Assembly (NCBI RefSeq): GCF_011745625.1
Contig: NW_027191475.1
Span: 310,001 to 374,000, forward strand
Direction: 5' to 3'
Length of the DNA stretch: 64,000 bases
From: Cladosporium halotolerans
Lineage: Eukaryota
Position 1 is the stretch's first letter. Each line of letters begins with the position of its first letter. Below the pieces are notes generated by a model, which did no database searches, had not been told where the DNA came from, and saw only the letters and a list, made by a program, of their open reading frames with translations. This document shows, piece after piece, positions 62,415 to 64,000 of the stretch. Made by a program: the position numbers and the translations under genes.

Positions 62415-63185
62415 ACGGCGATCGGTTCTTTGATTTCCTCATTTTGGTTTTTTTGGCAAGCAACGGATGAGTTTGATGACTGTACATGAAAAATGACTGC
62501 GTGCATGACATGATTGATTGATTGATGCGTGGCTACTTCTGGTTGCTCGTTTTGAAGCGTTGTGCGCGGTGATTCAGCAATGGAGACGTGAGACCGTAGA
62601 CGGTGATGTAGATTCCGGAATTGAGCATATCGTTGCCTTCCCGCGAATACGAGCCTCGTGTCTGCATGCGATGATAGCGGCGATTGAATCACGCCGCAGT
62701 CACCGCATGCAAGTGCTTATTGAGAGACATCACCCCGGCAGTGGCACACAAGGCCCGGCACCTGAAGGCTGCACCGTGTATCTGATGTCTCAGACTGCAT
62801 CCAGCCCGTCTGCACGCGCAGGCCTGTCTGAGGCAGCCACCAGACACGCCCGCCGCCGGCCAAGCTTCAGGTGAGCGCAGCGCCCCCAGACGCGTCCGTG
62901 CGCGGCCCTCTAACGCGGCCCGCTGGGCGGCTTCATCATCTGGAGATTCCACGAGACAGCCAGACAGACCGCACCCGCTCGCTAGCCTGCCACGCTGCCA
63001 CGCCTGCACTGCTGCCACTGCCACTGCCACTGCTGCACCACTCTTGCTCCCACGCATACTGCTCAACGCGCATCTGCCCTGACACTGCTAGGCATCCTCC
63101 CTCTCCTCCTCACGACCACGGCGGCCACTCTCTGCCGCAGCACCACTGCACCTAACCCCCCGCGACACCCACACCCTCAGCAATC

Positions 63186-64000
63186 ATGAATCCCGAGTGG
63201 TGAGTGCCCTCGCCTGCCAACGACGGCGCCTATGCCATACCTCTACTGCAGGCAGCACTGCTATGATAAGGACGTCACTAACACCGCGCCTCGCAGAGTA
63301 TCTCCCGACCGCACCCTTCGCGCAGACCGCCACAGCCCGCTCCTCCTCGCTTTCCCGCTGCGCGCGCCCCGCCCCATCGCCCAAAAACCACCCCTACTGA
63401 CCCGCACCCGCCGCAGATACGACTACCTCTTCAAGCTTCTCCTCATCGGTGACTCCGGCGTCGGAAAGTCATGCCTTCTTCTCCGTTTCGCCGATGATAC
63501 CTACACCGAGAGCTACATCTCCACCATCGGCGTCGACTTCAAGATCAGGACCATCGAGCTCGACGGCAAGACTGTGAAGCTTCAGATTGTGCGTCTCTAT
63601 ACCCTGAGAGAATAGTTTACAACAAGTGACGGAATACTGACGGACTTGTGCTACAGTGGGACACCGCGGGCCAGGAGCGCTTCCGCACAATCACCAGCTC
63701 CTACTACCGCGGCGCGCACGGCATCTGCGTCGTCTACGACGTCACCGATATGGATTCCTTCAACAACGTCAAGCAGTGGCTGCAGGAGATCGACCGCTAC
63801 GCCACCGAGGGCGTCAACAAGCTGCTCGTCGGCAACAAGAGCGATATGACCGACAAGAAGGTTGTGGACTACAACGTTGCAAAGGTTCGTCGATATTCCT
63901 GCACTCCTCTGATTTTATTTCCAGCTCACACATCTTCACAGGAATTCGCAGACAGCCTCGGCATCCCCTTCCTCGAGACTTCCGCCAAGAACGCCAGCAA
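63186..64000 (+). CDS. YPT1: Rab1/Ypt1 small GTPase, 5' part (runs off the window)
   Basis: [64 protein letters not shown]. Exons 63186-63196, 63417-63588, 63657-63884, about 63942 onward. Confidence 0.97.
63197..63416 (+). other. Nested spliceosomal twin intron (stwintron, [D3,4]) in YPT1
   Basis: Internal intron 63200-63296 (GTGAGT, ACTAAC at 63277, CAG) sits between nt 3 and 4 of the external donor GTG|AGT. External branch point ACTGAC at 63396 and acceptor CAG ending 63416. Confidence 0.85.

Follow-up and report, generated by a model that had tools for sequence, protein, structure and literature searches.

A probable [D3,4] donor-split stwintron in the first intron of the Rab1/YPT1 gene ypt1, with the same split donor in distant orthologs

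The closest known counterparts of the element reported here are stwintrons in which a complete U2 intron lies inside the 5' donor of a second intron, such as the [D2,3] element of the biotin gene bioDA, found across Sordariomycetes, and the [D1,2] element of the lipase gene lipS, found in three Leotiomyceta classes (PMC5639578). The types listed as demonstrated are [D1,2], [D2,3], [D5,6], and [A2,3], along with [D4,5], [D6,7], and [D7,8] in Lipomyces (PMC7138796). According to the 2025 paper by the stwintron authors, almost all known stwintrons are of the [D1,2] type and the other types are seldom met. The same authors give the fungal donor consensus as GURWGY (2025 paper; PMC7138796). Their experimental criterion for a stwintron is a detectable transient intermediate that lacks the internal intron alone (2025 paper), and comparative verification, in the form of a nested structure at the same position in orthologous genes, is also among their criteria (2022 paper).

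We analyzed a 64,000-nt stretch of DNA, referred to in its full length as the window, that ends within the Rab1/YPT1 gene ypt1. We consider it probable (about 80%) that the 220-nt element between ypt1 codons 4 and 5 is a conserved [D3,4] donor-split stwintron that is removed in two ordered steps, as the first-pass annotation of this DNA had proposed. This reading is based on the anatomy of the element, the mature RNA junction, and the recurrence of the split donor in all four complete orthologous introns, whose sequences cannot be aligned. The ypt1 element shares with the bioDA and lipS elements (PMC5639578) a complete U2 intron nested in the 5' donor of another intron, a well-conserved, single-copy host gene, and a position that persists across large fungal groups despite divergence of the intron bodies. 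It differs from them in that the break falls between donor nucleotides 3 and 4 and in that the host gene encodes the essential Rab1/YPT1 GTPase. Like [D2,3] elements, it starts with GT and passes as a normal GT..AG intron, in contrast to [D1,2] elements, which begin with GGT and are always mis-annotated (PMC5587772). As a rare non-[D1,2] type in the first intron of a conserved gene, it resembles the [D5,6] stwintron of a reticulon-like gene in Pezizomycotina (PMC6616335) and the [D4,5], [D6,7], and [D7,8] stwintrons of Lipomyces (PMC7138796). However, those elements are described from poorly conserved, disordered N-terminal coding regions (PMC7138796), whereas the ypt1 element is 11 nt into near-invariant coding sequence in which any slip results in an immediate stop.

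The known stwintron types that the first-pass annotation had named agree with the literature cited above, and [D3,4] is absent from the type lists in the main texts of the stwintron papers, a designation that is unsearchable as a string and for which the 2013 founding paper or supplements could hold an entry. In full-text searches, no paper with both stwintron and ypt1, Rab1, rabO, or srgB was among the matches listed, and the combination of stwintron and GTPase led to a single paper, a general review that mentions each term once. The [D3,4] twin intron of ypt1 is apparently a variant undescribed so far, though not certainly unpublished. It would fill the sole gap in the series from [D1,2] to [D7,8] as it stands in those main texts.

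The exon-intron layout of ypt1 on the forward strand was read from the translation of the window and from run X5, the only true cDNA library among four runs aligned to 62500-64000, which was available as assembled contigs. One cDNA contig of 1370 nt, with blocks at 63042-63196, 63417-63588, 63657-63882, and 63940-64000 of the window, joins 63196 to 63417 with 0 mismatches and skips 220 nt with GT..AG ends. The resulting mature mRNA, from which the whole 220 nt is gone, has its exons in frame and reads MNPE/YDYLFK (a slash denotes a splice junction), which is the junction that the first-pass annotation had deduced to be forced by the Rab1 protein start. Exon 1 extends at least from 63042 to 63196 and comprises 5' UTR and 11 coding bases, ATG at 63186-63188 followed by AAT CCC GA up to 63196. 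There is no ATG in 63042-63185, and the ATG at 63186 is the first in the transcribed stretch seen; therefore, translation starts with MNPEYDYLFK. A CACTGC-like microsatellite at 63005-63041 adjoins the first aligned RNA base at 63042; it was passed over as a repeat, and the transcript 5' end given here is a bound.

Exon 2 (63417 to 63588, from A TAC GAC to KLQI) was defined by the RNA contig and by translation, and it encodes the N-terminal portion of a Rab1/Ypt1 GTPase. It is followed by an ordinary intron 2 with donor GTGCGT (63589 to 63656; RNA joint 63588/63657), exon 3 (63657 to 63884, WDTAGQE...VAK), an ordinary intron 3 with donor GTTCGT (63885 to 63941), and the start of exon 4 (63942 to 64000), all supported by the RNA contig, with the gene continuing past the window end. 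The contig alignment gives the joint between exons 3 and 4 as 63882/63940, and placing the cut 2 positions to the right yields GT..AG ends for intron 3. The frame of exon 2 is open across the entire 220-nt intervening sequence (63190-63615), with an ATG at 63232, probably as a result of G+C bias. This in-frame ATG and the open frame were considered as an alternative start and were rejected because the RNA splices out the whole stretch.

All of the elements that the first-pass annotation had named between 63186 and 63417 were found in the sequence at their places. The 220-nt element begins with GTG (63197-63199), nucleotides 1-3 of the putative external donor, for which there is an equivalent GTR in the four complete orthologs described below. 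The 97-nt internal intron (63200-63296) has donor GTGAGT at 63200-63205, branch point ACTAAC at 63277-63282, with its A 15 nt from the intron 3' end, and acceptor CAG at 63294-63296; these signals are unchanged in the DNA of three close relatives. The 120-nt remainder of the external intron (63297-63416; 123 nt including GTG) begins with AGT at 63297-63299, putative donor nucleotides 4-6, and has branch point ACTGAC at 63396-63401 and acceptor CAG at 63414-63416. AGY follows the internal acceptor in the window and in the four orthologs alike. As read in the window, the 5' end of the element is GTGGTG, which mismatches the fungal consensus GURWGY at positions 4, 5, and 6. In-silico excision of the internal intron joins GTG to AGT and generates GTGAGT, a canonical donor for an external intron of 123 nt in which ACTGAC is 16 nt from the CAG ending at 63416.

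Orthologs were sought in a metagenome scan with the exon 2 peptide, from which 80 of 474 confirmed loci were kept, and the sequence before the Tyr codon was read in all 80. Most of these loci were cDNA-like or intronless at the site. An acceptor directly before A TAC GAY was found in five of them (L033, L038, L047, L048, and L058); the L038 contig breaks off within the intron and says nothing on the layout, leaving four complete loci. All four share one layout: an ATGAAYCCNGA start is followed by GTR, a full intron, and AGY, and further on by another branch point with its acceptor. Three of these loci have an outer GTG and an external remainder that begins with AGT and ends with TAG. In L047 the internal intron reads GTAAGC..GCTGAC..CAG and the remainder AGT..GCTAAC..TAG; the corresponding sequences are GTACGC..GCTAAC..CAG and AGT..TCTAAT..TAG in L048 and GTATGT..ACTGAC..CAG and AGT..CCTAAC..TAG in L058. 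In L033 the outer GTA is followed by an internal intron GTGCGT..ACTGAC..CAG and a remainder AGC..ACTGAC..CAG. Thus, both halves of the L033 donor vary (GTA and AGC), and the rebuilt donor is still legal, GTAAGC. Lengths range from 65 to 183 nt for internal introns and from 78 to 123 nt for external introns. The internal branch point is 14-28 nt from YAG in the four complete orthologs, and branch points overall are 9-28 nt from their acceptors.

The loci with the twin intron are far apart in sequence. Third-codon-position identity over the first 41 exon 2 codons is 0.56-0.71, the G+C of the loci ranges from 0.48 to 0.61, and in the five loci (the window and its four complete orthologs) the intervening sequences are unalignable outside the splice signals. 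Among 10 pairwise comparisons of internal introns, L047 with L048 alone scored above all 200 shuffles, and among the 10 comparisons of external remainders none did. L033, L047, L048, and L058 share the two later intron positions of the window. They also have an extra intron after STIGVDF, as does L057, at a site where exon 2 of the window is continuous; this difference is a loss or gain between lineages. The extra intron and the shared later positions therefore identify these loci as orthologs from lineages of differing intron content. Their intron size and CTRAC branch points suggest that the loci with the twin intron are filamentous-ascomycete-like.

The split donor recurs in all five loci. 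Before splicing, the outer hexamers are GTGGTG, GTGGTA (three loci), and GTAGTG, each off consensus at positions 4-6, which bears out the earlier description of GTGGTG as a poor donor. The rebuilt hexamers match GURWGY in every locus (GTGAGT in four, GTAAGC in one). As a control within the same genes, G stands at +5 in 13 of the 14 remaining ypt1 donors of the five loci, and none of the 14 combines G at position 4 with T at position 5. The single ordinary ypt1 donor without G at +5 is GTACAA, in the last intron shown for L047 (after VAK). GTGGTG at the exon border would probably be functionally dead until the internal intron has been excised.

The chance of encountering the internal 3' signals was estimated with dinucleotide-preserving shuffles of each intron interior (5000 per locus), which were searched for a branch point, YAG within 4-32 nt, and then AGY. 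The combination appeared in 63 of the 5000 shuffles for the window, 70 for L033, 38 for L047, 53 for L048, and 150 for L058 (0.8-3%), and each of the five real sequences has it. Multiplied together, the five frequencies give 4e-10, a figure that assumes an independence that relatives lack. The arrangement of branch point and YAG/AGY must be maintained by selection, because it persists though the intron bodies have diverged beyond recognition.

Of the features by which a class [D] stwintron is recognized, the following were found at this locus. The internal U2 intron is complete and has a donor, a branch point, and an acceptor of its own; it interrupts the six-nucleotide donor of the external intron, and there is no consensus donor at the exon border; once it is excised in silico, the external intron is canonical; the element is entirely absent from the mature mRNA, which is in frame; and the nested layout is at the same position in four of four complete orthologous loci. 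The spliceosome would first select GTGAGT at 63200, the only fungal-like 5' splice site in the element. By intron definition, its partners would be the closest branch point and acceptor, ACTAAC and the CAG ending at 63296, so that a 97-nt lariat would leave first. Ligation would set GTG (63197-63199) beside AGT (63297-63299), placing a GTGAGT donor right after CCC GA. In a second round, use of ACTGAC and the CAG ending at 63416 would remove the 123-nt external intron and produce GA/A TAC, the start of MNPEYDYLFK. We infer this order of the two splicing reactions from consensus rules and conservation. No contig of run X5 had the 63199/63297 intermediate or the misspliced 63199/63417 joint; assembled contigs drop rare forms, and their absence is not evidence either way. 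Removal of the 3' half first, from GTATCT at 63298, was rejected because the leftover cannot be removed in frame.

In silico, unspliced RNA encodes MNPEW-stop, the intermediate encodes MNPE-stop, and the product that joins the internal donor to the distal acceptor also encodes MNPE-stop. The nonproductive RNAs all stop after 4-5 codons, and therefore both steps would be obligatory for the synthesis of any Ypt1. Any Ypt1 protein would thus depend on the two steps together, yet the first-pass description of an intron that gates YPT1 expression claimed too much as a statement about regulatory use by the cell.

Recursive splicing leaves all splice signals intact and ligates the upstream exon to an acceptor within the intron. 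The ypt1 element resembles the recursive (ratchet-point) splicing or intrasplicing of long animal introns in that removal would be stepwise and a 5' splice site would be remade at the ligation junction. It differs in that the donor itself first has to be freed of an intron. No ratchet point was found: joining 63196 to 63297 gives GA/AGTATC, with no GT at the junction. The stwintron authors themselves separate stwintrons from recursive splicing (PMC5587772).

A simpler possibility is that the element is an ordinary 220-nt intron that is cut in one step at the weak GTGGTG, with the internal signals being incidental. The element does end in GT..AG, and the fully spliced RNA is the sole form seen in run X5. 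Splicing occasionally uses donors that lack G at +5, as in L047, and a weak site is thus not impossible. In mammalian cells, U1 bound to a strong site can promote cleavage at a neighboring site, and a comparable contribution could come from U1 at the site 3 nt downstream of the ypt1 exon border. However, one-step removal leaves unexplained why a branch point and YAG/AGY are kept in five of five loci with unalignable bodies, and it leaves the compensated GTA and AGC pair of L033 unexplained as well. It also requires use of a hexamer that is off the published consensus at three positions in every one of the five loci. We therefore regard one-step removal as unlikely. That the gene model is wrong, with the real first exon elsewhere and the ATG at 63186 and its odd intron an annotation illusion, might be suspected from an exon 1 with only 11 coding bases. 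This idea is refuted by the RNA contig, which is unbroken from 63042 to 63196 and then continues at 63417, and we give it practically no weight; in addition, 63042-63185 offers no other ATG, and ATGAAYCCNGA precedes the intron in the four complete orthologs.

It is also conceivable that the twin intron is real and that the cell sets the level of Ypt1 by directing more or less of the RNA into productive two-step splicing rather than into the dead-end MNPE-stop product, a proposal compatible with the [D3,4] stwintron reading. The dead-end route from the internal donor to the distal acceptor is geometrically available, and every nonproductive RNA would stop after 4-5 codons. Single-event missplicing via distal sites has been published for [D1,2] stwintrons (2022 and 2025 papers), but it is termed occasional or infrequent there. 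The single RNA contig of run X5 is the productive form, with no misspliced or intermediate contig in an assembly of a kind that drops rare forms. Such control of Ypt1 seems unlikely.

The position of the stwintron among Rab1 introns bears on its origin. In the same metagenome scan, an acceptor 3 nt further downstream (AG/C GAY TAC) was present in L015, L020, L026, L027, and L057. L020 yielded the acceptor only; in the other four, exon 1 was found as ATGAAYCCNGA(T/G/A)TA followed by an ordinary donor, so that an ordinary intron follows coding nucleotide 14, ATGAAYCCNGARTA/GT..AG/C GAY. Some of these loci have intron positions in common with the ascomycete loci (GVDF and AK/EF in L057, KLQI in L027, and AK/E in L026). 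The nucleotide 14 intron site of these Rab1 loci of other eukaryotes is the exact start of the internal donor of the twin intron, and the stwintron 5' end, GA-GTR-GTRNGY, follows the pattern of the nucleotide 14 exon-intron junction. For example, the L033 5' end, GA GTA GTGCGT, matches the form of the L026 junction, GA GTA GTGAGT.

We tentatively suggest, as a possibility that is somewhat more likely to be wrong than right, that the twin intron is a preserved intermediate of a codon-sized (3-nt) shift in intron position. On this view, the original first intron of Rab1 would survive as the internal intron, and the external intron, at nucleotide 11, would have been added later, on the 3' side, in filamentous ascomycetes. 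Another reading of the same observations is stwintronization as outlined in PMC7138796, in which 3 nt at the donor start of an ordinary nucleotide 11 intron would have been duplicated (GTG GTGAGT). Origin by a larger duplication was rejected because similarity between the internal intron and the external remainder was absent in five of five loci, with 42-299 of 300 shuffles reaching the observed score. The ypt1 element is like the alternatively spliced [D1,2]/[A2,3] stwintron that was described as the intermediate of a 1-nt shift (PMC5587772) in that it sits between two neighboring intron positions of orthologs. It is unlike that case in that its offset is 3 nt, a codon step, and in that it is without an alternative [A] reading. 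The authors of the 1-nt shift state that their own route cannot yield shifts in codon steps (PMC5587772). If the codon shift suggested here is true, then twin introns could move an intron position by one codon and leave the protein unchanged.

That fungal spliceosomes match splice sites through intron definition, and that they are able to scan the same stretch of RNA twice, is shown most clearly by stwintrons. In ypt1 the host gene is essential and near-invariant, and wrong cuts lead to stops after 4-5 codons. Every wrong cut is an early stop, and the locus could therefore serve as a stringent natural readout of the order and fidelity of splicing. Because the element begins with GT and ends with AG, annotation and RNA-seq junction callers take it as normal, and therefore similar cases may be common and unnoticed. 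Furthermore, the internal donor is at what is an ordinary Rab1 intron position elsewhere, and the disputed sliding of introns by one codon can therefore be tested on one gene across fungi.

Runs X1, X16, and X17 are DNA of close relatives; it continues across the introns without a break and differs from the window by 1-2%. The long contigs of these runs show 16 (X1), 15 (X16), and 7 (X17) differences in all. Substitutions within 63197-63416 number three in X1, nine in X16, and three in X17, and none hits a donor, branch point, acceptor, or the AGT, a check of low power. Eight of the nine X16 substitutions in the intervening sequence are inside the internal intron (63232-63274), and one (63307) is in the 120-nt external remainder, a skew that could be constraint or chance. 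The G+C of the external remainder is 0.72 and that of the internal intron 0.61. Sampled words of 63100-64000 are shared by at least 20 runs from 16 studies under more than 10 coded organism labels, with shared-word fractions of ca. 0.36-0.5, which is roughly the fraction of words wholly inside exons. To judge from these shared words, the source fungus or near relatives seem to be widespread in public runs.
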